A DNA stretch of 20,000 bases from an uncultured virus (IMG/VR IMGVR_UViG_3300023240_000015) (taxonomy: Duplodnaviria; Heunggongvirae; Uroviricota; Caudoviricetes): IMG/VR virus record IMGVR_UViG_3300023240_000015. One strand, 5' to 3'. A program made the translations under genes and the position numbers. Within the stretch, counting starts at the first letter, position 1. Each line of letters starts with the position of its first letter. The notes beneath the pieces are model-generated. The model was not told the origin of the DNA, searched no databases, and worked only from the letters and a program-made list of their open reading frames with translations. Shown here in pieces: positions 5,181-18,832 of this stretch.

Positions 5181-5765
5181 ATGTCTGCACATTTTATGAA
5201 AAATCCATATCCAATTCACTATACTAGGGATGAGTATAGAAACGAATATCTAGTATCTCCCGATTGGAAGAAGAAGAGGCTTATTGTATTGGAAAGGGAT
5301 GAAGTATGTCGAATTTGTGATGTGACCGTTTCACATGATGTTCACCACATAACATATGACCGTATTCCGTTCGAGAATTTGGAGACCGATTTAATCGGAA
5401 TCTGTCGCCCTTGTCATAATAAGATTCATAGCTGGCATCTCTTAACTAAGTGCCGTAGCGTGAAAAAGATACGTTCACTTATTTCAATGATGAAGACTAA
5501 ATTCGAGATAGATGATTTATTCATCTCAAAAATGAATGGTTTACCGATAAATTCGAAGAAAAAGATGTCGAGTCTCTTTAAGAAGAATGTGCATTCCTTC
5601 GAATCTCTTCGTGGGGTTATGGTAACATTTAGAACTTACTTGGACATAAGAGACCTAATCAAAACAGCCCGTAAGAAGTTTAAATCAAAGAAGTTGGGGT
5701 TTAAGATCAATAAACCACAAAATTCTTTCTTAGGTCATGGTGGATGGAGTAGAAAAATTCTATAA
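5181..5765 (+). CDS. HNH endonuclease
   Basis: YLVSPDWKKKR..VLERD..CRIC...VHHITY....E...DL...CRPCHNKIH. Confidence 0.85.
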   Translation: MSAHFMKNPYPIHYTRDEYRNEYLVSPDWKKKRLIVLERDEVCRICDVTVSHDVHHITYDRIPFENLETDLIGICRPCHNKIHSWHLLTKCRSVKKIRSLISMMKTKFEIDDLFISKMNGLPINSKKKMSSLFKKNVHSFESLRGVMVTFRTYLDIRDLIKTARKKFKSKKLGFKINKPQNSFLGHGGWSRKIL

Positions 5766-5772
5766 TTAAAAT

Positions 5773-5845
5773 ATCCCTGCCAGCGGATTCTGGACAGATG
5801 CCTTCTAAGCAACTAGGGAAGGTTCGACTCCTTCTAGGGATACCA
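5773..5845 (+). tRNA. tRNA-Arg(TCT)
   Basis: Acceptor ATCCCTG/TAGGGAT, loop CTTCTAA, GGTTCGACTCC, CCA. Confidence 0.8.
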
Positions 5846-5861
5846 AATGTTAAATATCGTT

Positions 5862-5894
5862 TCGGCCCGATGATCTGGTAAACCAGAAGCCGAC
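5862..5894 (+). repeat. Hairpin repeat, copy 1
   Basis: ATCTGGTAAACCAGAAGCCGAC (5873-5894) is identical to 6108-6129. Confidence 0.85.
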
Positions 5895-5900
5895 ATTTTT

Positions 5901-5937
5901 GCCGTGGTCGCATAGTGGCCGATTGCACCTGTTTTTT
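5901..5937 (+). pseudogene. tRNA 5' half only (Thr-like acceptor; identity uncertain)
   Basis: GCCGTGG-TC-GCATAGTGGCCGATTGC-A-CCTGT then a T run; no matching 3' half found. Confidence 0.6.
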
Positions 5938-5938
5938 T

Positions 5939-6075
5939 ACCTACAGAGTTCGTCGATTAGTATGTAGGTGGCTGGAATAAACATCGACTCTGACGGAGAA
6001 TCTGATAGGTCAGAAATAGGTCTGACAATCCGTTGAAGCAACAACAAAAATCGCGATCAAAATGTTGCTAGGACT
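5939..6075 (+). ncRNA. Structured RNA with a pseudoknot and a group I intron-like P4-P6 segment
   Basis: ACCTACA/TGTAGGT crossed by GTCGAT/ATCGAC; GACGGA-GAA...GACAA-TCCGTT; AGCAACA/TGTTGCT. Confidence 0.45.
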
Positions 6076-6096
6076 TGTAAATTTGAAACTTGCGAA

Positions 6097-6129
6097 CGGC
6101 TCGCGTAATCTGGTAAACCAGAAGCCGAC
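6097..6129 (+). repeat. Hairpin repeat, copy 2
   Basis: CGGCT...TCTGG-TAAA-CCAGA-AGCCG. Confidence 0.85.
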
Positions 6130-6136
6130 TTTTTAC

Positions 6137-6210
6137 GCTTCCTTAGTTCACGCTGGCTAGAATTCCTCACTTGTAATGAGGGGAAGTCGGTTCGACACCG
6201 ACAGGAAGCT
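6137..6210 (+). tRNA. tRNA-Thr(TGT)
   Basis: GCTTCCT/AGGAAGC, CCTCA-CTTGTAA-TGAGG; no encoded CCA. Confidence 0.9.
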
Positions 6211-6917
6211 CATGATCGATTGCGTTTGCCACTCTTGTTAAGTCTCCTAAAGTTTGGAGTCAAACTATGACAATTTGGACAAATTAGTTCAAGGTTATCC
6301 TCAGAACAATTCAAAGCATCACCGTCAATATGGTTGACCTCCAAAGGAATAGATTTGCTAGTTGGGTTAATTTGACTCCAACCACATTTACAACATTTGT
6401 TTTCATATTTATCAAAAAGATATCTTCTTACGAATACTTTAATTCGGATAGTCTTTCCCGTCCACCCATTGATGGACCCATCTTTCCAATTACTAATCAA
6501 CTCTTGTTGTTTATATTTTCTTGTGCAAATCTGCGAACAAAATTTTCTTGGATTTTCCCTCTCGATGAAAGAAAATGAGTCTTTGCAATTCTCACAATTT
6601 TTTGTTTTAGTGTTAGTAATTTTTCTTAAATGGTTGTTGAAAGTTGCCGAACAAGACCTTGAACAGAAATTATTATCACCAATTTGGCTATTTTGGATAA
6701 TCCGACTTTCTCCGCAATTTTTACAAATAATAGACTTGGTGAGAGTCTTCGCTCGTCGTGAACACTCTACGGAACAAAAATCGACCCTTTTTGTCCCTTT
6801 CAATCCCCTTCGTGCTAGTGATATACTAACGAAAAAAGGTTTCTTACAATTTAAGCATTCGCATGGAACTTTTGAGCCGCGAACAACATCTGAAATATTT
6901 GGTACGAGCATCTTCAT
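6210..6917 (-). CDS. HNH homing endonuclease with CxxC...FCS zinc-ribbon repeats
   Basis: C-terminal LEVNHIDGDALNCSEDNLELICPNCHS. Start reassigned to ATG 6917 because TAAGTA lies 5 nt upstream and the longer ORF overlaps a tRNA. Confidence 0.85.
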   Translation of the reverse strand: MKMLVPNISDVVRGSKVPCECLNCKKPFFVSISLARRGLKGTKRVDFCSVECSRRAKTLTKSIICKNCGESRIIQNSQIGDNNFCSRSCSATFNNHLRKITNTKTKNCENCKDSFSFIERENPRKFCSQICTRKYKQQELISNWKDGSINGWTGKTIRIKVFVRRYLFDKYENKCCKCGWSQINPTSKSIPLEVNHIDGDALNCSEDNLELICPNCHSLTPNFRRLNKSGKRNRS

Positions 6918-6960
6918 ACTAATACTTACCCCGATTCCCCGTCTTGGCTCCATACAATTT

Positions 6961-7039
6961 GTCGCGGGAGTGAAACGGAATAATAATCCAAGTCTCATAA
7001 GCTTTGGGATAACAGGTTCGACTCCTGTCTGCGCCACCA
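6961..7039 (+). tRNA. tRNA with CAT anticodon (Met or Ile2)
   Basis: Loop CTCATAA, ACAGG-TTCGACT-CCTGT, CCA; one acceptor mismatch. Confidence 0.75.
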
Positions 7040-7065
7040 TTGATAATGATCGTTTACATTTATAT

Positions 7066-7161
7066 ATGGATAAGGCTAAGGTAGCCGGAAGGACTCCAAA
7101 TCCTTTGTGTCAAATCGGAAGAAATGACTACGATAAGATTCGATTTCTTATATCCATGCCA
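7066..7161 (+). tRNA. tRNA-Trp(CCA) with long variable region
   Basis: ATGGATA/TATCCAT, AAGGA-CTCCAAA-TCCTT, about 27-nt variable region, CCA. Confidence 0.75.
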
Positions 7162-7178
7162 TTTCAAAAACTTTATAT

Positions 7179-7265
7179 GTGGTTGCGCAGAAGTCGGAGA
7201 GTCTGACCTGCCTTTCAAGCAGTGTCCCTTATGGGAAGCGGGTTCGATTCCCGTCAGCCATGCCA
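7179..7265 (+). tRNA. tRNA-Glu(TTC) with long variable arm
   Basis: GTGGTTG/CAGCCAT, CTGC-CTTTCAA-GCAG, TCCC-TTAT-GGGA arm, CCA. Confidence 0.75.
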
Positions 7266-7349
7266 TTTCGATACTTTGCCTTAACAATGTGTAGTTATTA
7301 GTTTCTAGAAACTATCCGTATGTGTGCATACGGGTTGAATGTTTTTATG

Positions 7350-7425
7350 GTGGTATTAGTGTAGTGGTTTCGCACTTCTCTTTGTGAAAGAGACAGGATG
7401 ATTTCGAATATCATATACCACACCA
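7350..7425 (+). tRNA. tRNA-His(GTG)
   Basis: GTGGTAT/ATACCAC, TCTCT-TTGTGAA-AGAGA, CCA; G at position -1 (7349); discriminator A. Confidence 0.85.
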
Positions 7426-7670
7426 TTTTTCATTAATCTTATCTTGGATAATTTGGAAATATTTTAATGACGACAATTCAGTGAATTTCATCTGTTCGGT
7501 AGTGTTTATAACACACAATTCTATACCATCCTCGAAACATTTTTTGATTTTCGCGTATCATTTCTTTGAATATTTAACAATTTAGATTCCCCGTAGATGG
7601 GAGAGTAATGAAATATACCATTGATCTCAAAAGCCAAGTCTAATTTTTGGATGTAGATATCTAACTCTAT
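7421..7670 (-). pseudogene. Remnant of a Vsr/DUF559-like endonuclease C-terminus, frameshifted
   Basis: IELDIYIQKLDLAFEINGIFHYSPIYG...NDTRK / IKKCFEDGIELCVI; no start codon. Confidence 0.7.
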
Positions 7671-7693
7671 CGCTTAGAAAATTTTAGTATTAT

Positions 7694-7764
7694 TCCCTGT
7701 AGGTGTATCGGTTGCACATCTGGTTTTGGCCCAGACAGGCGTGGTTCGATTCCACGACGGGGAG
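7694..7764 (+). tRNA. tRNA-Gln(TTG)
   Basis: TCCCTGT/ACGGGGA, TCTGG-TTTTGGC-CCAGA. Confidence 0.8.
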
Positions 7765-7778
7765 CATTTTAGATTTTT

Positions 7779-7863
7779 GGGTGATTAAACTGTTAAGGAG
7801 GCAGTCGGGATTGTAAACCCCGCTCGTAATGATCGCAGGATTCGATTTCCTGATCACCCACCA
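7779..7863 (+). tRNA. tRNA-Tyr(GTA)
   Basis: GGGTGAT/ATCACCC, loop TTGTAAA, long variable arm, CCA. Confidence 0.85.
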
Positions 7864-7867
7864 TTTC

Positions 7868-7946
7868 GCGTTGGTATCCGCTTCGGCTTCGAACCGATTG
7901 AAACGGTAAAGGACGCATGGGATTTCGAAATTCCCCCGACGCACCA
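7868..7946 (+). tRNA. Non-canonical tRNA-like RNA, TCG (Arg) anticodon, no conventional D arm
   Basis: GCGTTGG/CCGACGC, TCGG-CTTCGAA-CCGA, T loop TTCGAAA, CCA; homologous to 13478-13556. Confidence 0.7.
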
Positions 7947-8052
7947 TTTGAATAATTTATCTAAACGATAAAGCCTGCACGTTTGAAGGTTCATGCGACC
8001 AATGATTACTACCATGTAGAGTCTCGCGAAACTGATCGGATGTATTTTCAAC

Positions 8053-8123
8053 CTCTGTATAATTAAATGGTATAATAAGCCTTTGATAAAGGCTCTTCGT
8101 TGGTTCGATTCCAGCTATAGAGA
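8053..8123 (+). tRNA. tRNA-Ile(GAT)
   Basis: CTCTGTA/TATAGAG, AGCCT-TTGATAA-AGGCT. Confidence 0.8.
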
Positions 8124-8136
8124 CATAATTTTCTAA

Positions 8137-8214
8137 CCTCCGTTAGCTCACGATTGGCAGAGCAAGCTCTTTATAAGAGCGAGGTAGCTGGATCGACGCC
8201 AGCACGGAGGACCA
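8137..8214 (+). tRNA. tRNA-Ile(TAT)
   Basis: CCTCCGT/ACGGAGG, GCTC-TTTATAA-GAGC, CCA. Confidence 0.8.
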
Positions 8215-8423
8215 AACATTTTTTGGTGCGTAGGCGAACACAACTCTTCGCCCACCAAAACATTTTTAACGAGACGGTGCTGCAAGGTTCGATCAGATCA
8301 TGATCTGTGAAAGACCCCAAGGAACGCACAATTAAAAAGTCTAATATAGTTTCACGACCTCATGAGGAAGTGTTACGACAATAAACACAGAAGGTTCGAA
8401 TCCCACTGGATGCACCAATTTAT

Positions 8424-8500
8424 TGCGGTCAGGTGGTCTGGTTGACCATTCAAGTTTCATAAGCTTGAGAGCTAGGTTCGATTCCTAGGACTCGCTACCA
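8424..8500 (+). tRNA. tRNA-Met(CAT), unpaired 1:72
   Basis: CAAGT-TTCATAA-GCTTG, CTAGG-TTCGATT-CCTAG, CCA; bulged acceptor stem. Confidence 0.7.
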
Positions 8501-8508
8501 TTTGTTGA

Positions 8509-8751
8509 GTAGTCGTAGAAGTAAAAATGATATGGAAGCATGGTGAAACGTTAAATAACTACACGAGGTTTTTCGAAGAAAAAAACACCGCCTTGCGATA
8601 TTTTTGCGAGAAAAGAGGCTACAAAGCGTTGATCTTAAATGTGTCTGATAATCCAGAATTTAACAAATTTTATAGAAAATATTTGAAACATTTTAATCGC
8701 AGGGTAGAGAAGGTGGTAACTCGGGGGTCTCATTCAGTAATCATGATGTGA
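8509..8751 (+). pseudogene. Probable C-terminal remnant of a PD-(D/E)XK endonuclease
   Basis: In-frame VVVEVK precedes ORF 8527-8751 (...EEKNTALRYFCEKRGYKALIL); the frame runs into a tRNA. Confidence 0.5.
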
Positions 8752-8799
8752 TTACTGAATAAGCCCTTTCATCGGATTCGAACGCCGCCCCCGCTACCA
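8698..8799 (+). tRNA. Initiator-type tRNA-Met(CAT) with a 27-nt palindromic insertion in the anticodon loop
   Basis: CGCAGGG start with C1 mismatch; GGGGT-CTCAT[insert]AA-GCCCT; irregular T arm; CCA. Confidence 0.65.
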
Positions 8800-8886
8800 T
8801 TTTTGCTACTATTTAAATTTTAATTTCAGAATAGCTACAAAACGATTCTGTTGACATCTAGGAAAGACTAGTGCCAATTTAAAAAT

Positions 8887-8961
8887 GGGAGATTAAGTTA
8901 TGCGGTAAACTTCGGATTTCATAAGTCCAGATAACGGATTCAGACGCCGTATCTCCTACCA
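8887..8961 (+). tRNA. tRNA with CAT anticodon (Met or Ile2), irregular T loop
   Basis: GGGAGAT/ATCTCCT, GGAT-TTCATAA-GTCC, CCA. Confidence 0.65.
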
Positions 8962-8971
8962 TACATTTTAA

Positions 8972-9051
8972 CGGAAATGGGACTGCTTGGCGTGGTCGCG
9001 TGATTTGGGATCACGATATTCAGCGGGATTCGATGGCCCGATTTCCGACCA
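8972..9051 (+). tRNA. tRNA-Pro(TGG)
   Basis: CGGAAAT/ATTTCCG, CGTGA-TTTGGGA-TCACG, CCA. Confidence 0.85.
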
Positions 9052-9073
9052 TATGACTTTGGGATTAGTTCGA

Positions 9074-9225
9074 TTCCACCTGTAAAGAACGTTCGTGAAA
9101 TCCTTTTTGTTTCGTAAACTTTCTGCGCGGTATATGATAGTTGACTAAGTGCAACAACCCCGCACCTTTTCTGAGTTATGCAGTTGCGATAAAACGCTAA
9201 ATAGATTGCAAACTCTATGGTGGAA
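9074..9225 (+). ncRNA. Putative structured RNA
   Basis: Closing TTCCACC/GGTGGAA; internal GAGTT..TGCAGTT/GATTGCA.AACTC. Confidence 0.4.
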
Positions 9226-9269
9226 GCTATGGTGAAAGCTGGCAACTTGCTTTGAAATGTTGTATTTAT

Positions 9270-9354
9270 GCGAGCGTGGCGAAATCGGCAGACGCGCCAG
9301 ATTTAGGATCTGGTTCCGCAAGGAGTGTGGGTTCAAGTCCCTCCGTTCGCACCA
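9270..9354 (+). tRNA. tRNA-Leu(TAG)
   Basis: Canonical class II cloverleaf, CCAGA-TTTAGGA-TCTGG, CCA. Confidence 0.95.
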
Positions 9355-9571
9355 AGTCTGGATGGGAATTGGAAACAAGACGGACTTCATAAATGTCTAC
9401 CTCACCGAATCGTTATTATTTGTGATAATCAAATGACGCAACCCTGTTTGCGAAAGAGGATAAACCTTAAACAGTTCAATTTATCATACTCCCCGCGCCT
9501 CTAAATGTATGCGTAATTCGGGGAGTCTTTTGAGAAATTTGATCACAGAGTTGTCTCTTAACCATTTATAT

Positions 9572-9651
9572 GTCTCGCTCGCCTAAATAGCTTAATGGCG
9601 TTTCCCTTCCAAGGAAAAATAATGAGGGCTGCTAATCCTCGCGGGATACCA
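9572..9651 (+). tRNA. tRNA-Gly(TCC), degenerate T loop
   Basis: GTCTCGC/GCGGGAT, TTTCC-CTTCCAA-GGAAA, CCA. Confidence 0.7.
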
Positions 9652-9654
9652 ATT

Positions 9655-9730
9655 TTGACTGATAGAGTCCTCCCCATCTAAGGGATTTGCCGGAAGGTGG
9701 TGGCGATTCAAAGAAAACTGGTTCAGTCGA
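9655..9730 (+). ncRNA. Small structured RNA
   Basis: Closing TTGACTGA/TCAGTCGA; internal GCC-GGAA-GGT. Confidence 0.4.
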
Positions 9731-9741
9731 TAATTTAAAAA

Positions 9742-9819
9742 CGCTAAGTGGTGTAGTTGGAACTCGCACGACATTCTGAAAAAATGAGGGAATCTGTTCG
9801 AATCAGATCTTAGCGGCCA
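9742..9819 (+). tRNA. tRNA-Phe(GAA)
   Basis: CGCTAAG/CTTAGCG, CATT-CTGAAAA-AATG, CCA. Confidence 0.75.
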
Positions 9820-9855
9820 TTATTCCGCTCGAATTAGAGCATGGAAAAATTTTAT

Positions 9856-9929
9856 GGGGCATAGCTGTGGTCAGCGGAGAATTCTTGCAAAATTCTTGTC
9901 TATGATTTCGATTATCATATGCTCCACCA
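9856..9929 (+). tRNA. tRNA-Ala(TGC)
   Basis: GGGGCAT/ATGCTCC with G3:U70, GAATT-CTTGCAA-AATTC, CCA; short D arm. Confidence 0.8.
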
Positions 9930-9934
9930 TTTAA

Positions 9935-10009
9935 GCGGGTGTCGTATAACGGCTATTATGGGGCATTGCCTATGCCCAGATGGGAGATCGTCCCTCCCCA
10001 CCCGCTCCA
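9935..10009 (+). tRNA. tRNA-Gly(GCC)
   Basis: GCGGGTG start, GGGCA-TTGCCTA-TGCCC, U73, CCA; atypical T loop. Confidence 0.8.
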
Positions 10010-10014
10010 ATTTT

Positions 10015-10148
10015 AAACATGAGGCGGAAATGTAAATGACGCAGCATTATCGAAAGAACTCTGGAACATCTACTAGTGATGCGAAATCCATTATTCTTAG
10101 AGATGAATCCTCCAAATGCAGGAGTGGGTCCAAATCCCACCATGTTTA
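10015..10148 (+). ncRNA. tRNA-shaped RNA with expanded anticodon and variable regions
   Basis: AAACATG/CATGTTT, GCG/CGC D stem, GCATTA/TGATGC, GTGGG-TCCAAAT-CCCAC. Confidence 0.55.
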
Positions 10149-10158
10149 AAGAATTTTA

Positions 10159-10234
10159 GTCCTCTGAGGGAGCAGGTGAACCCCAACCTCTGCAAAAGGT
10201 TTGTTGCTCGGTTCGATACCGAGAGATGACTCCA
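10159..10234 (+). tRNA. tRNA-Cys(GCA)
   Basis: AACCT-CTGCAAA-AGGTT, U73, CCA. Confidence 0.85.
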
Positions 10235-10276
10235 CTTTTTAATTGACAATATCTGAAATTTTGATATCTTCACCCT

Positions 10277-10504
10277 ATGAAGAAAATTATTGCAAACTTG
10301 GTGAGTTTTATATTTGAAATGATCGACCTTATATTTTGGTGTCTGTTTTTGTTTATGTTGTTGTTTATTGTTGCGGTAGCTTTTTACACCTTTGGGTGGC
10401 AATTATTGGCCGCTATCATTCTTATCCCGATCATCTTTTTTGGTTTTTATTTTATCTATGATGGTATTCGGTATATTTACGAATGGTCACAAAAAAACAA
10501 ATAA
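10277..10504 (+). CDS. Small membrane protein (two TM helices)
   Basis: Very hydrophobic 75-aa ORF with its own TTGACA at 10243. Confidence 0.7.
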   Translation: MKKIIANLVSFIFEMIDLIFWCLFLFMLLFIVAVAFYTFGWQLLAAIILIPIIFFGFYFIYDGIRYIYEWSQKNK

Positions 10505-10510
10505 TTTTAT

Positions 10511-10585
10511 GGTCTGCTCGCCAAGTGGGAAGGCCGAAGGTTTACATCCTTCCATGACTCCGTTCGATTCGGAGGCAGATCACCA
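10511..10585 (+). tRNA. tRNA-Val(TAC)
   Basis: GGTCTGC/GCAGATC, GAAGG-TTTACAT-CCTTC, CCA. Confidence 0.9.
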
Positions 10586-10590
10586 ATTTA

Positions 10591-10663
10591 GCGTATGGGA
10601 GATGAAATGTATATCAGGCAAAGTCCTCTCCAAGTGTAGGTTCAAGTCCTGCTACGCCCACCA
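10591..10663 (+). pseudogene. tRNA-like RNA lacking an anticodon arm
   Basis: GCGTA/TACGC, GTAGG-TTCAAGT-CCTGC, CCA. Confidence 0.5.
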
Positions 10664-10760
10664 TTTTTACGTAAAAGAAAATTCGATGGCCTTTCCTTAT
10701 AGGGCAACAAGATGTGAAACATTATCGAACGGTAAAAGTCCGTATATAGGGACAATTTAT

Positions 10761-10837
10761 GGAATCGTAGAAAGCTGGAAAATTCACTTCCCTGTCAAGG
10801 AAGCTACGTGTGGGTTCGAGTCCCATCGGTTCCGCCA
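10761..10837 (+). tRNA. tRNA-Asp(GTC)
   Basis: GGAATCG/CGGTTCC, CTTCC-CTGTCAA-GGAAG, G73, CCA. Confidence 0.9.
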
Positions 10838-10922
10838 TTTACGTAAAAGAAAACTGATGCACTTGTTGAGACGGGAGTGTGTGAAGATAGGGGTAAAAGT
10901 CCCAACTTGATCTCCAATTTCT

Positions 10923-10996
10923 GGAATCATAGCAAGCTGGAAAATGCGCCTCCCTGTCACGGAGATGATTTGAGGGTTCGAGTCCCTTTGGTTCCG
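10923..10996 (+). tRNA. tRNA-Asp(GTC), second copy
   Basis: GGAATCA/TGGTTCC, loop CTGTCAC; ends GCC without the final A. Confidence 0.9.
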
Positions 10997-10999
10997 CCT

Positions 11000-11866
11000 T
11001 TAAATACGCGAAGATTCTGTTGATATTCTTCTCAAAATTTCTTCTTTATGTTTCAAATGATCCGAATCAATAAGAATGATTTTCTGATTATCATCTTTCA
11101 CAGATTGGATTTTATTAGGCAACCAATCCTCGATATAAAATTTTCCTTTAATTTCCACCCACAACTTCAAATCTTCGAGATAAAAATCTGGATAATATTT
11201 CTTATTTTTCCCTCGGTAAATGTAATGAAAGAATGTAGTTGTGTTTTTAGACCATTTGATATTATTATCATCCAAAAGTTCGGCAAATTGCGCTTCGGAA
11301 CCCGAATCCATTTTGATACCATTATAAAAACAACGATGTAGTCGGGTGGAATTTTCTCTATATCCACCGAGATTAGGATTTTTATATGAACACGGTAAAC
11401 TACAAAATTTTCTTTGACTGCTTGACGGTGAGCAGTAAAATTCTTTATCACATATCAGACATGTTTTATAAGTTCCTGTTTTAATATGTATAGGTTGTGT
11501 GTAATTCTTTTTCGCATAAGCCGACATTTTATTCCTCAATTCAGGGGTCCATATAGATTCCCTTCGTGGAATATTAAATTTCGCAGCACACGAAGATGTG
11601 CAAAAATGATTAGAGGATTTCTTAAAATCTTTTAATGGTTTACATACATCTTTATCACATTGGGCACATTTGCATAAAATTCGATTACCAGAGTGTATTT
11701 CTAAACATCCCCGAGAACAGAAAAGCATATGATTTTTAGATTTCAAAATTCTCCTTTTATCCAATACAATTCGTTTTTTGGAAAAGAATTGTTTTTCGCA
11801 TCTTTCACATTTTAACTCAACGAGATCATGACTTTTTAATTTTGCTATATCGGATATAATATTCAT
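11000..11866 (-). CDS. PD-(D/E)XK homing-type endonuclease with zinc-ribbon repeats
   Basis: DSGSE...YYPDFYL....WVEIKG; three CxxC...FC(S/T)xxC repeats; start reassigned to ATG 11866 (TAAGTA 5 nt upstream). Confidence 0.85.
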   Translation of the reverse strand: MNIISDIAKLKSHDLVELKCERCEKQFFSKKRIVLDKRRILKSKNHMLFCSRGCLEIHSGNRILCKCAQCDKDVCKPLKDFKKSSNHFCTSSCAAKFNIPRRESIWTPELRNKMSAYAKKNYTQPIHIKTGTYKTCLICDKEFYCSPSSSQRKFCSLPCSYKNPNLGGYRENSTRLHRCFYNGIKMDSGSEAQFAELLDDNNIKWSKNTTTFFHYIYRGKNKKYYPDFYLEDLKLWVEIKGKFYIEDWLPNKIQSVKDDNQKIILIDSDHLKHKEEILRRISTESSRI

Positions 11867-11927
11867 ATAACTACTTACACTAAACGGGGTAGAAATCCAC
11901 CTAAAGTGCAAGTTTATTTTCAGAATT

Positions 11928-11981
11928 TAGGTGCATACAGCAATCAAAAAATTGTATATTAAACACAAAAAACTGCATCTA
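11928..11981 (+). ncRNA. CAGCAATCAA hairpin motif, copy 1
   Basis: TAGGTGCA-TACAGCAATCAA...AAAAAAC-TGCATCTA; homologous to 19753 and 19827. Confidence 0.7.
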
Positions 11982-11987
11982 GTTTTT

Positions 11988-12076
11988 ACTGCGATACCCT
12001 AACTGGTAAGGGACGAAGCTGTTAACTTCGCGTATTCCTCGAAAGAGGTATCTAGGTTCGAATCCTAGTTGCAGTG
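11988..12076 (+). tRNA. tRNA-Asn(GTT) with long variable arm
   Basis: ACTGCGA/TTGCAGT, CGAAG-CTGTTAA-CTTCG, CCTC-GAAA-GAGG arm. Confidence 0.8.
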
Positions 12077-12105
12077 CATCAGGTAGGGAACACCTACCAT
12101 TAAAT

Positions 12106-12244
12106 TTGAGTGTTAAGTGAGAATGATGGCCAACACACTTGTTCAGAAATGTCTAAGAGTTGGAGATTGCCGAGAGGTCTCCGCGCCTGTGGCTCCAATT
12201 TGTCCCTTGGGGATGGATATACAGAACGGTCTGTAGATGCTCAA
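12106..12244 (+). ncRNA. Putative structured RNA
   Basis: Closing TTGAGTGTT/GATGCTCAA; TTGGAG/CTCCAA, GGAGA/TCTCC, TACAGA/TCTGTA, TCCC/GGGA. Confidence 0.5.
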
Positions 12245-12255
12245 TTAATTTTAAA

Positions 12256-12329
12256 TCCCTTGATAGTTTAACATAATAGAACGAAGTCCGTGGGGACTTT
12301 GGCGCGGAGAATCACCGTGATGGGGACCA
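12256..12329 (+). pseudogene. Degenerate tRNA-like RNA
   Basis: AAGTC-CGTGGG-GACTT arm with a 6-nt loop; ends ACCA; poor T loop. Confidence 0.4.
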
Positions 12330-12341
12330 TTTTTATTAAAT

Positions 12342-12414
12342 TTCTTCGTAGCTCAATGCCCCAGAGCCTTGTGATAGTATACAAGAGATGTAGGTTCTAA
12401 CCCTATCGAAGAAT
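12342..12414 (+). pseudogene. tRNA-like RNA with an 8-nt non-canonical anticodon loop
   Basis: TTCTTCG/CGAAGAA, GCTC/GAGC, CTTGT-GATAGTAT-ACAAG, GTAGG/CCTAT. Confidence 0.55.
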
Positions 12415-12431
12415 TAATTTTGAATTTGATT

Positions 12432-12606
12432 GAGAGAACCAAAAAACTAAATACCCTGCATATAGTATATCGGGGTCTGGGTCATACCACAGTAGATCAT
12501 TGAATTGATCGAAGGATGATCCTAACCAAGCCATGTGTGAAAACAGGGCTTTGATACAGCAAGAACTAGTCGTGGAGTGTTACGCGAAAGACACCTTGGT
12601 TCTCTC
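12432..12606 (+). ncRNA. Putative structured RNA, 175 nt
   Basis: Perfect 11-bp closing stem GAGAGAACCAA/TTGGTTCTCTC with internal hairpins. Confidence 0.6.
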
Positions 12607-12652
12607 TTTCATATAATTTAAATGGGGCTTTAACCGCCCGAAAAAATTATAT

Positions 12653-12740
12653 GGATCATACTGAGGTAGGCTCCTCAAACTATTTTGAAAATAGTAGTAG
12701 CTCTAAAAGGCTAATCGTTCGATGCGATTATGATCCGCCA
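12653..12740 (+). tRNA. tRNA-Ser(TGA)
   Basis: GGATCAT/ATGATCC, ACTAT-TTTGAAA-ATAGT, long variable arm, G73, CCA. Confidence 0.8.
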
Positions 12741-12741
12741 T

Positions 12742-13003
12742 TTTTCTTGTTAGAGGTTGGCTTAGAAGCAGCAACGAATGATAAATTCTGATTGTCTATG
12801 ACAATTACCTTTAAAGAGTAGAGCGAAACGCGAGTCTCCGATATCAACGGTCCATATTTTATGGGTGTCTGTGATAACATGAGCGTGTCAAAGTTAGATA
12901 TTGACGTTCATGTTGGATTTCGTCTAACCGTGGAAGTAAAAGGATACCCCGTAAATGGTAAGGTCTGATTCTCTTTTGGCGTAATATGCACATAACAAGA
13001 AAA
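12742..13003 (+). ncRNA. RNA resembling the 23S rRNA L11-binding domain (H43/H44) with two insertions
   Basis: GAGGTTGGCTTAGAAGCAGC (12753-72), CCTTTAAAGAGT (12808-19) and GCGTAATA (12979-86) in rRNA order, closed by TTTTCTTGTTA/TAACAAGAAAA. Confidence 0.75.
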
Positions 13004-13012
13004 ATTTTTTAA

Positions 13013-13080
13013 TTCGAACTAGGGAATGGTAGTCACCCCGAATCAGGTATAGTCTTGGTTCGAGTCCAAGGTTCGCAGCA
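13013..13080 (+). pseudogene. tRNA-like RNA lacking an anticodon arm
   Basis: CGAAC/GTTCG, GGG/CCC D stem, CTTGG-TTCGAGT-CCAAG. Confidence 0.55.
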
Positions 13081-13203
13081 TACAATTTCTCTCACAAAAC
13101 GAGACAAACATTGGGGTATGGCCTAGATGGGTTAAATAAAAAGCGGTTATCGAGACCGTGATTAAAAAAGACTAGACGTTTGAGAGGGTGCATTTTTAAT
13201 TTC

Positions 13204-13277
13204 GATCCATTAGTGTAATGATAACACAAAACATTCTCAGTGTTTTATCGCGAGTTTGATTCTCGCACGGATCGCCA
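13204..13277 (+). tRNA. tRNA-Glu(CTC)
   Basis: GATCCAT/ACGGATC, AAACA-TTCTCAG-TGTTT, CCA. Confidence 0.8.
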
Positions 13278-13278
13278 A

Positions 13279-13438
13279 TTTTGCCAGCCGTATAGCAGTA
13301 CACACGCTATACGCACCTGATCATGAAATCTCCCTTTGAGAAAGGAGACCAAGGACGATTGGGCACTCGGGATCAATAAAGAGTCCAGATGAAATTCTCA
13401 CTCACCTGCTTTGCTGATATTCCCCGTAGCTGGTAAAA
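13279..13438 (+). ncRNA. Putative structured RNA
   Basis: Closing TTTTGCCAGC/GCTGGTAAAA; CGTATAGC/GCTATACG; TCTCC.CTTT/AAAGGAGA. Confidence 0.55.
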
Positions 13439-13477
13439 CTTTTTTAAATAATAAGTAGTTTCATATGGTTTAAATAT

Positions 13478-13556
13478 GCAATAGTAAACCCTCGGCTTGC
13501 GGAGCCGTAGAAAGGTTAAAGGACACATGAGATTTCGAAATTCTCCTATTGCACCA
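13478..13556 (+). tRNA. Non-canonical tRNA-like RNA, GCG (Arg) anticodon, no conventional D arm
   Basis: GCAATAG/CTATTGC, CGGC-TTGCGGA-GCCG, T loop TTCGAAA, CCA; homologous to 7868-7946. Confidence 0.7.
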
Positions 13557-13598
13557 TTTATTTGTTGACAATCCTCTAAACATGTTTATATTGGGGAG

Positions 13599-13979
13599 AT
13601 GAACATAAAACTGAATATACCGATAGAAGATGTAGAAGTTCTCGAATGGTGGTCCTTGGAGTTTATGAAACGAAAAGAAAAAATTCTTAAAAAACGGAGC
13701 ACTCCGGTTCGGGTGAGATTACTATCTAATCAACAATTTATCACCACCAAATCAAAGAAAACCATCTGGCCGAGTATCGGTGCGGCCAAGAGCGCACTTC
13801 GATTAGATTTTTCGGGTTTGGACGAATTCGTGCCTCGATGCGAGTGCCACGGTTATAATTATAGACATAAAATTACTAAAACCCACTTTCAAGATTGGAG
13901 AGAAAAGGTAGAAAGAGATGAAGCGGCATTTCAAGAATTTATTGAAAATTGGGTAGAGTTCGTCCCATGTCTGAGTTAA
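13599..13979 (+). CDS. Hypothetical protein
   Basis: 126-aa ORF; TTGACA at 13565. Confidence 0.7.
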   Translation: MNIKLNIPIEDVEVLEWWSLEFMKRKEKILKKRSTPVRVRLLSNQQFITTKSKKTIWPSIGAAKSALRLDFSGLDEFVPRCECHGYNYRHKITKTHFQDWREKVERDEAAFQEFIENWVEFVPCLS

Positions 13980-13983
13980 TATT

Positions 13984-14355
13984 ATGAATCATAGACCTAT
14001 ACAAATCATTTTACCAGAATCTCAAACCGAAATGGTCCTAAGAGACTGTCTAATGGCGTCTTATGATACTAAGGTAGATCAATTAGATTGTTCAAAATCT
14101 GTGGCACGACAAAAGACGGATAAAACCGTAGAAGAAATTTTACAAATGGGGTTGAATTATGATCACACATTGTATAGTTTTATTTATAAGGACATGTCTT
14201 TCCTTCCTCAAGAATATCCCAAAAATCATGATTATTGGGATGTCGGATTATCAACCCTAACATCCGACGTTAGTTATTATCTTTGGATTCGATTATTTGT
14301 TCAAGATGGTTGGGCCATTGCTTCTGAATATGACCTGAAAGAAAGAAAATTTTAG
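13984..14355 (+). CDS. Hypothetical protein
   Basis: 123-aa ORF tightly following the previous gene. Confidence 0.7.
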   Translation: MNHRPIQIILPESQTEMVLRDCLMASYDTKVDQLDCSKSVARQKTDKTVEEILQMGLNYDHTLYSFIYKDMSFLPQEYPKNHDYWDVGLSTLTSDVSYYLWIRLFVQDGWAIASEYDLKERKF

Positions 14356-14360
14356 AATAT

Positions 14361-14451
14361 GGGCGTGTGGTGAAGCTGGCTGAAACACCATCGACTTAAA
14401 ATCGATGACCCAAGTGGTTAAACATCGTGGGTTCGATCCCCACCACGCCCA
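14361..14451 (+). tRNA. tRNA-Leu(TAA)
   Basis: GGGCGTG/CACGCCC, ATCGA-CTTAAAA-TCGAT, long variable arm. Confidence 0.9.
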
Positions 14452-14554
14452 CCCTAGATAAAGGCATTATGTAGTGAAAAAAATGCGACAATTGATGGTT
14501 CTCAAATAGATAGTTGACATATATATAACATGTGTGGTAAAGTAAAAGTTACCA

Positions 14555-15040
14555 ATGAACATATTTCATCTATCCTCTGATCCTAAAGAAGCTGCAAAAT
14601 ATTATGTAGATCGCCATGTAGTTAAAATTATTACCGAAATAAATCAATGTTTGTCATCTGCATATCCCAAAGGCACGGCACCTTATAAATGGACTCACAC
14701 CAATCATCCAATGACAAAGTGGTGTCGGGCATCCAAATCTAACTTTAAATGGTCTATAGAGCACTGTCAGGCTCTATGTGAGGAATATACATATCGGTAC
14801 GGAAAGATCCATAAAGGTGAAGGCGTCCTTGATTGGTATCGGCAAAACGATCCACAAATTGAAAATGTTGAAATGACCGCTGTGCCAAGGTGCTTCGGCA
14901 CCTTCAAGGATTTGATCCCAGAAACTAAAAATCACATTGAAGATTATCGAAATTATTATCGAGTTGGTAAGAAGCATCTTTTTAATTGGAAAAAGCGAGA
15001 AACTCCAGAATGGATACTTGACAAATCTATAAAAGATTGA
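14555..15040 (+). CDS. Pyrimidine-dimer DNA glycosylase / endonuclease V-like protein
   Basis: MNIFHLSSDP..AA....DRHVVKII.E..Q.LS...H.NHP...W...EY..RYGK.H signature. Confidence 0.8.
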   Translation: MNIFHLSSDPKEAAKYYVDRHVVKIITEINQCLSSAYPKGTAPYKWTHTNHPMTKWCRASKSNFKWSIEHCQALCEEYTYRYGKIHKGEGVLDWYRQNDPQIENVEMTAVPRCFGTFKDLIPETKNHIEDYRNYYRVGKKHLFNWKKRETPEWILDKSIKD

Positions 15041-15070
15041 TAATGTCGAGGCATACAAACAATAAATAAT

Positions 15071-15424
15071 ATGAAAAAGGAAAAAACATTAGCCGGTTCT
15101 CGGTTGGGCGATCCAGACGAAGCTCTCAAAAAACACTGCAAAGCTGCGAACCGTTTATTTGATAATTCATTTGCCGTGGAACTGGCGGAAGAAACACGCA
15201 CCAATTACCAAAAACCTGTCGATCTAACTCTTCAAATTGGGCATGGAGATATTCATTTGCTAAAATCTCATTTTATCAAACCTCCGACCGATGAACGTGA
15301 GCGCAAATATATTAATGAGATTAAAAAATTATCAGAGGAAGAACTTTCCATATTTTTAGTTAAATTGGCAGTCCGTCAGGTCGCGGGGGAATACGCAAGA
15401 AGTTTAATTAGTCCTTCTGTATAA
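15071..15424 (+). CDS. Hypothetical protein
   Basis: 117-aa ORF; TTGACA at 15018. Confidence 0.65.
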   Translation: MKKEKTLAGSRLGDPDEALKKHCKAANRLFDNSFAVELAEETRTNYQKPVDLTLQIGHGDIHLLKSHFIKPPTDERERKYINEIKKLSEEELSIFLVKLAVRQVAGEYARSLISPSV

Positions 15425-15426
15425 TT

Positions 15427-15858
15427 ATGAAAATTTCATTCGATTTTGATGATTGTTTGGCTATCCCTCGCAGAACCTCTGGGGACTCATTGGTTTGGGC
15501 TGGTAACAACTATGTAATCGACCTCAACGAGAAGATTAGTAAGGTGATGTCGGAACATATTGCCAAGGGTGATAACGTCCATATCGTATCATTTCGTAAA
15601 TTGGTGGGTAAATTAGAAATGATTCATTTTATCCGAGATCATGACTTAATGGTCCCGATTGATCATATCCATTGCACCCATCACAATCCTAAAAGTGAGA
15701 TTATTAATGAATTAGGAATCGAAATTCATTATGATGATATGATTCAGGTATGTATTGATTTGAATCTTCATTCTAAATGTAAACCGATTCTCGTTTTGCC
15801 AGTGGGAGATGTTGGGAGGAATTCTAGTGCTGACCTTTTTGAACAATTTGTTTATTGA
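15427..15858 (+). CDS. HAD-superfamily hydrolase (capless, phosphatase-like)
   Basis: ISFDFDDCL (DxD), IVSFR, a conserved K and HYDD motifs. Confidence 0.75.
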   Translation: MKISFDFDDCLAIPRRTSGDSLVWAGNNYVIDLNEKISKVMSEHIAKGDNVHIVSFRKLVGKLEMIHFIRDHDLMVPIDHIHCTHHNPKSEIINELGIEIHYDDMIQVCIDLNLHSKCKPILVLPVGDVGRNSSADLFEQFVY

Positions 15859-15864
15859 TATTTT

Positions 15865-15953
15865 GGAACGTAGGCAGATATTGGCTTGCTGCGTAAGTTT
15901 GCTAAATTTATCCACTCGAAAGGGTGGTCAGAGTTCGATCCTCTGGCGTTCCG
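15865..15953 (+). tRNA. tRNA-Ser(GCT)
   Basis: GGAACGT/GCGTTCC, loop TTGCTAA, long variable arm. Confidence 0.85.
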
Positions 15954-15958
15954 CATAT

Positions 15959-16050
15959 GGAGGGTAGGCAAATGTTGGTTTGTTGCGCCAGTTTGGAAAA
16001 CTGGTCTGGTCGAAAGGCCAGCGAGAGTTCAATTCTCTCACTATCCGCCA
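15959..16050 (+). tRNA. tRNA-Ser(GGA)
   Basis: CCAGT-TTGGAAA-ACTGG, long variable arm, GCCA. Confidence 0.85.
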
Positions 16051-17237: not shown

Positions 17238-18149
17238 TTAGACTGCGGTATTTGAACGAGTTAGATTACGAAATGGGGTTCTACCAAATCCTCTTGGAGA
17301 GGTTCGGTCCCATATATAAATATTGTTATCAACCATTTCGGTGACATCTTTAGATATTCCGATGTAGTTAATAACATGATTACCTTCTAATATGGGGGAA
17401 AGTATTAGATGGTTGTAATATACAACACTTTCTTTTGTTAAATTTTTCAATAAAACATCACAACCATCTCCGGTTTCAAATGCTTTATTCATTGTGTTAA
17501 GAGCTTCTTGATCTACATCACCACCTTGTAAAATTGATCTATTTTGACCGACTAATTCTTTTGAGCTATAACCAGAAATTCTACAAAAAGATTCATTAAC
17601 ATATAAGATATTATGTTCAGGAGATGATGCTTCGGTAATAATGATACCGTCTCTGGTCAGAGCAACGGCTTTTTGGATAAGAGAAGTATTAAAAAAATTG
17701 TCGAAATTAAAATCGGTGACATCCGTAGCAACTCCTACGGTGTTATCATGGTTAAAATCATGGACCGAAAATCTCCATGCTAACTTTGCATATTCACCAT
17801 TTTTCTTCTTCCATCGATTGATAAAATGATTTAGACGATCAAATTGTATGTCATTTCCTTCTAAAATAGATGACCATACAATTTCGGTCTTTTGAACATC
17901 ATCAGGATGAATGAACTCCCATACTTTTTTACCTATCATTTCATCGTTTGTATATCCCAGAATTTTTCCGGTTGATTGTGACAATCTCAAAATTTCACCA
18001 TCTCGGTTAACAAATACGATCATATCAGGAGACGCCGAAAATAACAGTGATAATTGATTTTCTACTTTTATTAAATTTTGAGATAATTTTTCCAAGTCAT
18101 TCTGACGAAGTTCTACTTTCGTTAATAATTCCTCTAAATTTTCTCGCAC
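17238..18149 (-). CDS. Tandem PAS-domain protein without an output domain
   Basis: PAS1 ILGYTNDEMIGKKVWEFIHPDD; PAS2 ILYVNESFCRISGYSSKELVGQNRSILQG...KDVTE. Confidence 0.85.
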   Translation of the reverse strand: MRENLEELLTKVELRQNDLEKLSQNLIKVENQLSLLFSASPDMIVFVNRDGEILRLSQSTGKILGYTNDEMIGKKVWEFIHPDDVQKTEIVWSSILEGNDIQFDRLNHFINRWKKKNGEYAKLAWRFSVHDFNHDNTVGVATDVTDFNFDNFFNTSLIQKAVALTRDGIIITEASSPEHNILYVNESFCRISGYSSKELVGQNRSILQGGDVDQEALNTMNKAFETGDGCDVLLKNLTKESVVYYNHLILSPILEGNHVINYIGISKDVTEMVDNNIYIWDRTSPRGFGRTPFRNLTRSNTAV

Positions 18150-18205: not shown

Positions 18206-18832
18206 ATGAGCAAAGCATTAAACATACATGTCTTAGTATTGAACAAATCTTGGAAACCAATAGGACATACAACGGTAAAGGATGCACTTGAAGATATGAA
18301 CTCATCTAAATACCCTAAAAAGGCACTAAAGATCGAATATATGAAAGATGATCAAGGAAATTTTGATTTTTCTGCCCCAACCGAGGTTATTCCTTTGTCT
18401 TGGAAAGAATGGGCTACCTTATCACCTAGAGAATTCGATGAAGATTCTATCCGAACGGTTTCTTTGGATGTCAGACTTCCTACGGTTATCATTGTGGGTT
18501 CTAATTATAATAAAATGCCCGTCAAGACGTTCCGAGCAACAAAGAGAAATATCTATAACCATTATGGAGGAAAGTGTATATGGACGGGTGACGTGGTTCC
18601 TTATAAAAGTGCTACCATAGAGCATATGCACCCAAGAAGTCGTGGTGGTGAAAACACTTGGGAGAATTTGGCTATTTCGTCCCCAGAATTAAATAGAAAA
18701 AAGGCTGATAGAACACCCGAAGAGTTTGGTATTATTCCTAAATACCAACTTAATAAACCGAAACCAGTTCCAGCACATATTTTGATCAAATCGGCAATTT
18801 GTGTGGATTGGAACATGTTTTTGAAGTTTTAA
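18206..18832 (+). CDS. HNH endonuclease family protein
   Basis: VLVLNKSWKPI N-terminus; TIEHMHPRSRGGENTWENL......N..KADRTP. Confidence 0.85.
   Translation: MSKALNIHVLVLNKSWKPIGHTTVKDALEDMNSSKYPKKALKIEYMKDDQGNFDFSAPTEVIPLSWKEWATLSPREFDEDSIRTVSLDVRLPTVIIVGSNYNKMPVKTFRATKRNIYNHYGGKCIWTGDVVPYKSATIEHMHPRSRGGENTWENLAISSPELNRKKADRTPEEFGIIPKYQLNKPKPVPAHILIKSAICVDWNMFLKF

Follow-up and report, generated by a model that had tools for sequence, protein, structure and literature searches.

Can an RNA with the acceptor, anticodon and T arms of a tRNA, in which no D arm precedes the anticodon arm, work as a tRNA, and how would its core be built? The question is raised by two 79-nt elements, referred to here as A and B, in a tRNA gene array of an uncultured virus. 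The source is an IMG/VR virus record of 80,834 bases (CheckV completeness 38%), and the window analysed, a stretch of 20,000 nucleotides with a GC content of 36%, is the minus strand of record positions 20987–40986. PHROG matches (gp23-like major head protein, baseplate wedge subunit, clamp loader and two RNA ligases) indicate a distant T4-like myovirus, whose major capsid protein has at most about 36% identity to that of any cultured phage. The DNA runs that contain the phage sequence carry the label "salt lake metagenome".

ARAGORN identified 22 tRNA genes in the window, all on the plus strand between positions 6137 and 16050, with no arginine tRNA among them and none overlapping A or B. No other CGN-reading tRNA was found in the array by ARAGORN or by a purpose-written scanner. 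Judging from the sequence, the UCU gene listed in Table 1 would, together with A and B, make up a complete arginine set. In the 58 long ORFs of the phage, CGN triplets represent 54% of all arginine codons and CGA alone represents 24.7%.

Table 1. Coordinates of the tRNA gene array and of the segments of elements A and B in the window
Feature	Position	Strand	Remarks
tRNA gene array with A and B	5773..16050	+	22 ARAGORN tRNAs and at least 7 other tRNA-like genes, with HNH endonuclease ORFs between
Cloverleaf-type tRNA-like gene, anticodon loop UCU (Arg, AGA/AGG)	5773..5845	+	Purpose-written scanner and constrained fold only; no ARAGORN call
Element A, putative rearranged-core tRNA-Arg gene, anticodon UCG at 7889-7891	7868..7946	+	Covariance model R2, 88.6 bits
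A, acceptor-stem 5' strand	7868..7874	+	Pairs with 7936-7942; 7 pairs, one G.U
A, helix X 5' strand	7877..7880	+	Read as analogue of D-stem 3' strand 22-25; pairs with 7904-7907; 7877.7907 is U.U
A, anticodon hairpin	7883..7897	+	4-bp stem, 7-nt loop with U33, UCG, A37, A38
A, segment T-T-G-A-A-A	7898..7903	+	TG read as 44-45 analogue; AAA as extra linker to transposed block
A, transposed block	7904..7915	+	Helix X 3' strand (analogue of D-stem 5' strand 10-13) and D-loop-like segment
A, segment C-A-T	7916..7918	+	Read as variable-loop 46-48 analogue; T7918 is the proposed Levitt partner of A7909
A, T arm	7919..7935	+	4 pairs and U.U; T loop TTCGAAA
Element B, putative rearranged-core tRNA-Arg gene, anticodon GCG at 13499-13501	13478..13556	+	Covariance model R2, 82.3 bits
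B, acceptor stem	13478-13484 with 13546-13552	+	
B, helix X	13487-13490 with 13514-13517	+	4 pairs
B, anticodon hairpin	13493-13507	+	
B, linker	13508-13513	+	
B, D-loop-like segment	13518-13528	+	GG at 13521-13522, A at 13523
B, T arm	13529-13545	+	
B, ACCA	13553-13556	+	

Besides the 22 called genes, the array holds seven more tRNA-like genes without an ARAGORN call (5773–5845, 6961–7039, 7066–7161, 7179–7265, 8887–8961, 8972–9051 and 9572–9651), with the anticodon loops UCU, CAU, CCA, UUC, CAU, UGG and UCC, respectively. Each has a 7-bp acceptor stem and a T arm, and CCA is mostly encoded; two of the seven have Rfam scores under the threshold. The CCA (Trp) gene of 96 nt and the UUC (Glu) gene of 87 nt have long extra arms, which are odd for these isotypes. 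Likewise, tRNA-Asn(GUU) at 11988–12077 has a long variable arm owing to an 18-nt insertion, and in phages related by their capsid protein the tRNA-Ile(UAU) genes are 90–93 nt long with long variable arms (L114:15477–15567, L115:9810–9899, L118:17641–17733), so type-II-like arms are found here on isotypes that normally do not have them. For the gene at 12342–12414 ARAGORN gives a two-base "anticodon" (ag); its fold has a 6-nt anticodon loop and it scores 36.2 bits with Rfam. The tRNA-Leu(UAG) gene at 9270–9354 has 60% GC, against 36% for the genome. This stretch alone reaches a summed contig depth of up to 65–69, against about 3 elsewhere, and shows variant letters in the four salt-lake DNA runs, which points to closely similar tRNA-Leu genes in other organisms of this lake that are more abundant than the phage, possibly its host.

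HNH/endonuclease-type ORFs lie in and beside the array at 5181–5765 (+), 6210–7040 (−), 11000–11911 (−) and 18206–18832 (+); endonuclease ORFs are scattered likewise in other tRNA-rich phages. A 303-aa protein encoded at 17238–18149 (−) consists of two PAS domains (PAS_9, 2e-27). The stretch 9489–9526 weakly resembles the abiF RNA family (25.6 bits, gathering score 37), probably by chance. Two RNA-ligase genes were found outside the window, one (G000:C1:8126–9235) Rnl1-like (PHROG 562; TIGR02308, under its cut-off) and the other (13661–14707 of the same contig) of the DRB0094 type (TIGR02306, 145.9 bits, slightly under its cut-off); on this sequence evidence, the pair suggests a tRNA-repair kit. 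The window ORF at 686–1375 was considered as a CCA-adding enzyme and rejected, as it shows no similarity to the tRNA nucleotidyltransferase of Streptomyces phage Mildred21 (E = 0.066) and has no NCBIfam match.

An earlier, sequence-only reading had described A and B as RNAs that align with each other without gaps. Both lie on the plus strand at the positions it gave, and they align in this way over 79 columns, 54 of them identical. Its list of segments is also right, i.e. a 7-bp acceptor stem, TA, helix X, CT, anticodon hairpin, T(T/A)GAAA, the second strand of helix X, an 11-nt GG segment, T arm and ACCA. Element A begins 4 nt past the CCA of a tRNA-Tyr gene (7779–7863) and ends with the discriminator A and an encoded CCA (7943–7946); its D-loop-like segment has GG at 7911–7912, followed at 7913 by an A that we read as the A20 analogue. 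As the same reading stated, no D hairpin lies 5' of the anticodon arm: there are 6 nt between nt 9 and the anticodon stem, and the pairing there is with a strand 3' of the anticodon arm. The outermost X pair of A is U.U, so helix X has three pairs in A and four in B, and the innermost pair of the T stem (53:61 analogue) is U.U in both. The compensatory change between the two elements is likewise genuine. Of 40 cells, 37 pair, and nine of the 20 pairs are altered on both sides and still paired, a figure reached by 1 of 500 shuffles; structures slid by 1–3 columns have 0–2 such pairs. The single-sequence minimum-free-energy fold of A is unlike this common fold and no better than those of shuffled sequences (z = −0.14). 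Contigs of the four DNA runs, which give thin and patchy cover over 7700–13700, contain no variant letters in A or B.

Narrow search patterns made from the loops of A and B returned a near-identical twin contig or chance matches, apart from one metagenome contig, L229, the single useful result among 119 metagenome stretches listed. In viral contigs, these patterns gave 17 further loci, with one weak covariance-model match of 16.5 bits; in genome contigs, the best fit among the 120 stretches listed had 14 of 20 pairs. The 364 bases of L229 that were examined hold a third copy, C, with the anticodon UCG and 18 of 20 pairs, followed by an ORF whose product has 43% identity over 65 residues to that of the ORF after B, so this RNA is conserved across well-diverged phages. 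Used as an anchor, the ORF after B led in viral contigs to the twin contig alone, and nothing was found in five relatives. A near-consensus sigma-70-like promoter (11/12 matches) lies at 13565–13592, 9 nt past B and ahead of the ORF at 13599–13979, and a TTGACA-containing stretch occupies the equivalent place after copy C (L229:85–120).

Wider patterns uncovered a large family. The first of these fixed loop bases only and identified 32 loci in viral contigs, two of them in the twin contig; the other 30 all fit the fold, with 17–19 of 20 pairs. The second pattern, which permitted one extra base in the GG segment, gave at least 120 loci, and among the matches listed 118 could be parsed, 117 had at least 17 of 20 pairs and 101 were distinct sequences. 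Because only loop bases were fixed, the search could not have selected for pairing. United, the two sets comprise at least 127 distinct viral-contig sequences of the same fold, at least 36 of the arginine type and at least 91 of the Ile/CAU type. The anticodons among the 127 listed are UAU (70), UCU (18), GAU (15), ACG (13), CAU (6), UCG (3), CCU (1) and GCG (1, which is B). The first set was used to build a covariance model, R2, which gives members 51–95 bits and canonical tRNAs 30 bits at most; by this model A and B are exactly the two members that this phage has.

The helices covary in both sets. In the first set (30 distinct sequences), 93.8% of cells are paired and 207 show double changes, against 56.9 ± 6.3 in shuffled alignments (0 of 500 reach this value) and at most 50 in slid structures. 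In the second set (94 distinct rows among the matches listed), which was aligned to the covariance model and is biased towards it, the corresponding figures are 93.3% and 583 double-change cells against 166.3 ± 12 (0 of 500). Homologues with covariation, on which the sequence-only reading had made its proposal depend, therefore exist, with double changes far above shuffles in two sets. For helix X, the three Watson–Crick pairs have double-sided changes in 14, 13 and 8 of the 30 sequences of the first set and in 20, 47 and 14 of the 94 rows listed in the second; the fourth pair is U.U in 29 of the 30. RNAalifold, given the alignments alone, predicts the helices of that reading and no cloverleaf, and the top 15 column pairs by mutual information are all pairs of the proposed structure.

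The acceptor stem is paired in 98.6% of cells across the family, its 5' strand comes first and its 3' strand last in all 30 sequences, and CCA is encoded in 10 of these. The anticodon stem of the family consists of 4 bp and an invariant U.U. The 53:61 analogue is G-C in 26 of the 30, and U.U in A, B, C and L370, which leaves them a T stem of four pairs; helix X is weakest in A. Alignment columns T31, G33 and A34–A36 are invariant in 33 of 33 sequences. The GG is invariant as well and the canonical T loop is kept, although the latter was a fixed part of the search patterns and its constancy therefore carries no independent weight.

The predicted fold is a canonical 73-nt tRNA in which nt 10–21 (the 5' strand of the D stem and the D loop) have been moved between nt 45 and 46, with an AAA linker. 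The lengths agree (73 + 3 = 76 nt), and every nucleotide is accounted for. The D-loop motif of columns 41–48 is also found in canonical arginine tRNAs beside family members and in the tRNA-Arg(CCG) of a relative. We re-ordered the sequences in silico by putting columns 37–48 ahead of column 10 and dropping the AAA. ARAGORN, which recognizes 0 of the 30 native sequences, called 29 of the 30 re-ordered ones, all with the expected anticodon (tRNA-Arg(gcg) for B), leaving A as the sole uncalled sequence. In the controls, it called 0 of 30 after the block was deleted and 17 of 30 after the block was shifted by 2. Rfam tRNA searches tell a similar story: A has no match at E ≤ 10, and B scores 19.9 bits (gathering score 29) in an alignment that omits the D arm and places a 17-nt insertion in the variable region. 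The suspicion that standard scanners may miss this architecture was thus well founded, as ARAGORN misses all 30 members tested and two of 20 loci reach the Rfam gathering score (29 bits).

In yeast tRNA-Phe, the core is held by the triples 9-[12:23], 45-[10:25] and 46-[13:22], the 8-14-21 contact and the 15:48 Levitt pair. In the permuted core, helix X would be the D stem, closed by its two strands in swapped order with the anticodon arm nested inside, and the two helices stacked would form an arm of roughly 10 layers. The new junctions (9 to 22, 45 to 10 and 21 to 46) would join residues that already touch in the L-shape, and the D-loop GG would still come after the strand leading to the elbow. 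Because the junction residues are already in contact in yeast tRNA-Phe, the U8-A14 and 15:48 pairs, the contacts of G18/G19 with the T loop, and A20 could all be kept. Of the 127 sequences listed, 100 have A:U at the 15:48-like pair, 21 have G:C and six have another combination, and the G:C variants may come from few evolutionary events; most tertiary partners are invariant and hence uninformative either way.

Bacterial ArgRS recognizes its tRNA mainly by A20 and C35, and the identity set also includes G36 or U36. Both anticodons, UCG in A and GCG in B, provide C35 and G36, and all 36 arginine-type members listed have NCG or NCU. The base after GG, predicted to take up the position of A20 in space, is A in 36 of 36 arginine members and U in 90 of 91 Ile/CAU members (127 sequences listed); outside the helices, no two positions in the alignment are more strongly correlated than this base (column 46) and nt 35. 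Such coupling is expected if correct charging is under selection, and it favours a functional tRNA over a decoy. Every one of the 30 sequences in the first set has U33 and a purine at 37; among the matches listed in the second set, U33 is present in 100 of 101 and A37 in 101 of 101, and all 83 Ile/CAU members have discriminator A. A and B are probably working tRNA-Arg isoacceptors of a widespread permuted-core phage class, with UCG for CGA/CGG and GCG for CGU/CGC. In this capacity they would be processed by RNase P, charged by the host ArgRS, bound by EF-Tu and used on the ribosome, and the phage would employ them for the frequent CGA and the other CGN codons. The earlier suggestion that UCG and GCG together read CGN without inosine is valid by wobble rules for this phage but not as a trait of the class, 13 of whose 127 listed members carry ACG.

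Three other explanations have to be weighed against this reading. The elements may be tRNA mimics that do not decode and would instead act as decoys or sponges, drawing off host modification enzymes or tRNA-targeting nucleases, or would mark processing sites in the array transcript. Opposition between phage tRNAs and tRNA-cleaving defences is an established theme (accessible parts of PMC10264068 and PMC11464382), the two RNA-ligase genes recall phages that repair cleaved tRNA, and the T stems of A and B are weakened. However, if the RNAs served to bait an anticodon nuclease, nothing would require the base after GG to change with the anticodon (36/36 and 90/91 of those listed), or U33 and a purine at 37 to be maintained across eight anticodons, and the members fill exactly the anticodon gaps in the tRNA sets of their phages. 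We consider mimicry unlikely. It is far less plausible still that the elements are decaying tRNA pseudogenes or ordinary cloverleaves drawn wrongly. The low or absent scanner scores and the unremarkable minimum-free-energy fold of A would suit this explanation, but at least 127 distinct sequences hold the same 20 pairs through hundreds of compensatory changes, a D hairpin cannot be drawn in the 6 nt between nt 9 and the anticodon stem, and RNAalifold finds no cloverleaf; we give it hardly any credence.

A different possibility is that only the gene is permuted and that RNA cutting and re-ligation, perhaps by the phage RNA ligases, restores a canonical mature tRNA, as for the circularly permuted genes of algae. 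The covariation of helix X is blind to this choice, because the D stem forms in either order; RNA ligases are encoded here, Mildred21 encodes an RNA ligase and a polynucleotide kinase, and the re-ordered sequences resemble good tRNAs according to ARAGORN. Such maturation would nevertheless take three cuts and three ligations within a folded RNA, in which no motif resembling a bulge-helix-bulge is evident. Moreover, the known permuted genes have internal termini and joined acceptor ends (accessible text of PMC3978253), whereas here the acceptor strands are already terminal, and the AAA linker and the U.U pair, both invariant, suggest that selection acts on the RNA in its encoded form. Re-ordering is accordingly very improbable in our estimation, and the mature phage RNA most likely keeps the new segment order that its gene predicts.

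Members of this class occur in cultured phages. The covariance model identified four in Streptomyces phage Mildred21 (MF155946.1), at 91367–91442, 86379–86453, 73703–73782 and 94857–94936. Of these, Arg-UCG is annotated as tRNA-Phe(gaa) and Arg-UCU as tRNA-OTHER, while Arg-ACG and Ile-GAU are unannotated. In Mildred21, UCG, ACG and UCU exist in the permuted form only, the sole canonical arginine tRNA being CCU. Rhodococcus phage Trina (NC_042040.1, 104372–104450) has one member with a longer linker, annotated as tRNA-OTHER. With blastn, look-alikes that are mostly unannotated were detected in 51 and 100 GenBank phage records, Streptomyces phages accounting for 44 and 77 of these, respectively; the fold was verified in two phages, Mildred21 and Trina. 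One or two members were also found in each of five other IMG/VR records (39–413 kb), of which four are rated complete. Canonical tRNAs lie within 300 nt at 18 of the 30 loci, on the same strand in 16 cases and in some cases 1–2 nt away.

Other searches for this class were negative. Megablast of the array against GenBank phages found nothing. Among ten relatives with 63–81% identity in the major capsid protein, an R1 search, repeated with R2 in two, found no member of the class; these relatives include complete genomes of 211, 211 and 230 kb and possess canonical arginine tRNAs (UCU, CCG, ACG). The class is therefore dispensable, as the closest capsid relatives do with canonical arginine tRNAs and without it. 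In cellular genomes, a sample containing no known actinobacterial genomes, the second pattern gave 0/5, 0/401 and 0/401. The sequences are most simply read as the outcome of a single origin, after which changes at nt 35 and at the nt 20 analogue switched the identity.

Compared with canonical bacterial and phage tRNA-Arg (Rfam RF00005), A and B share the 7/5 acceptor/T-arm branch, a TTCGA-type T loop, the discriminator A, U33, C35, G36, a purine at 37, and the D-loop GG followed by A. They differ in the connectivity of the core and in the anticodon stem (4 bp and U.U), and both fall under the Rfam gathering score. Animal mitochondrial tRNAs that lack the D arm, such as tRNA-Ser(AGY/UCU) and nematode tRNAs (PMC7609411 and PMC4013460, accessible parts), likewise have no D hairpin between the acceptor and anticodon stems and are missed or scored low by standard models. 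Those forms are reductions, in which a short connector replaces the D arm and elbow contacts are lost or loosened (PMC7609411, accessible text). In the phage class, by contrast, the D-stem strands, a full GG D loop and a canonical T loop are all present in a new order, with 3 nt gained, and the connector is paired, as shown by the covariation of helix X, rather than unpaired. The carriers are also different, phages of bacteria in one case and organelles with an adapted EF-Tu in the other. The accessible text of PMC7609411 does not mention phages.

Circularly permuted tRNA genes, known from Cyanidioschyzon merolae, green algae and Thermofilum pendens (PMC3978253, accessible text), resemble the phage class in having a segment order unlike that of the cloverleaf, and for both an origin by duplication and trimming is plausible. 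In the circularly permuted genes the 3' half comes first and the tRNA is broken internally, the canonical mature molecule being regained by way of a circular intermediate (same source), whereas in the phage class the acceptor ends are in place and an internal 12-nt block alone is displaced. Some phage tRNAs evade tRNA-targeting defences through changes in the anticodon loop; they too are phage-encoded, divergent from those of the host and located within tRNA arrays, but, as far as PMC10264068 is accessible, they keep the cloverleaf and differ in loop bases, while here the backbone topology differs. The announcement of the BE1 phages, in its accessible part, merely counts 43–48 tRNAs (PMC5764925). 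In the full-text literature searched, which left subscription journals mostly outside, no description of a permuted-core phage tRNA fold was found.

The original observation on A and B is real, and the family is larger than could be seen from that pair: the class is widespread and mostly unannotated. A more ambitious joint reading of these data, which we put forward tentatively and regard as possible although doubtful, is that the class represents a third natural tRNA connectivity, next to the cloverleaf and the mitochondrial forms that lack an arm, and that this internal permutation of the core would preserve every tertiary contact of the L-shape. It would have originated once, by duplication and trimming, and spread among unrelated phages of 66 to 413 kb, from actinobacterial siphoviruses to the salt-lake T4-like myovirus, with switches between Arg and Ile whenever nt 35 and the nt 20 analogue changed together. 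It might persist because the changed backbone path hides these tRNAs from factors, of host or phage origin, by which canonical tRNAs are destroyed, yet leaves them acceptable to synthetases, EF-Tu and the ribosome.

Inventories of phage tRNAs miss genes and are in some cases incorrect, as in Mildred21. The occurrence of the class in Streptomyces and Rhodococcus phages, and probably in Microbacterium phages, which are cultured and easy to handle, makes charging, structure and any evasion of tRNA nucleases directly testable, and engineers of orthogonal tRNAs may be interested in a naturally re-wired scaffold with its identity elements intact. Cloverleaf connectivity has been treated as universal outside animal mitochondria (PMC3978253, accessible text). 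If these RNAs are indeed charged and decode, the tRNA fold tolerates re-wiring of its core, and synthetases, EF-Tu, RNase P and the ribosome would read the shape of the molecule rather than the path of its chain.
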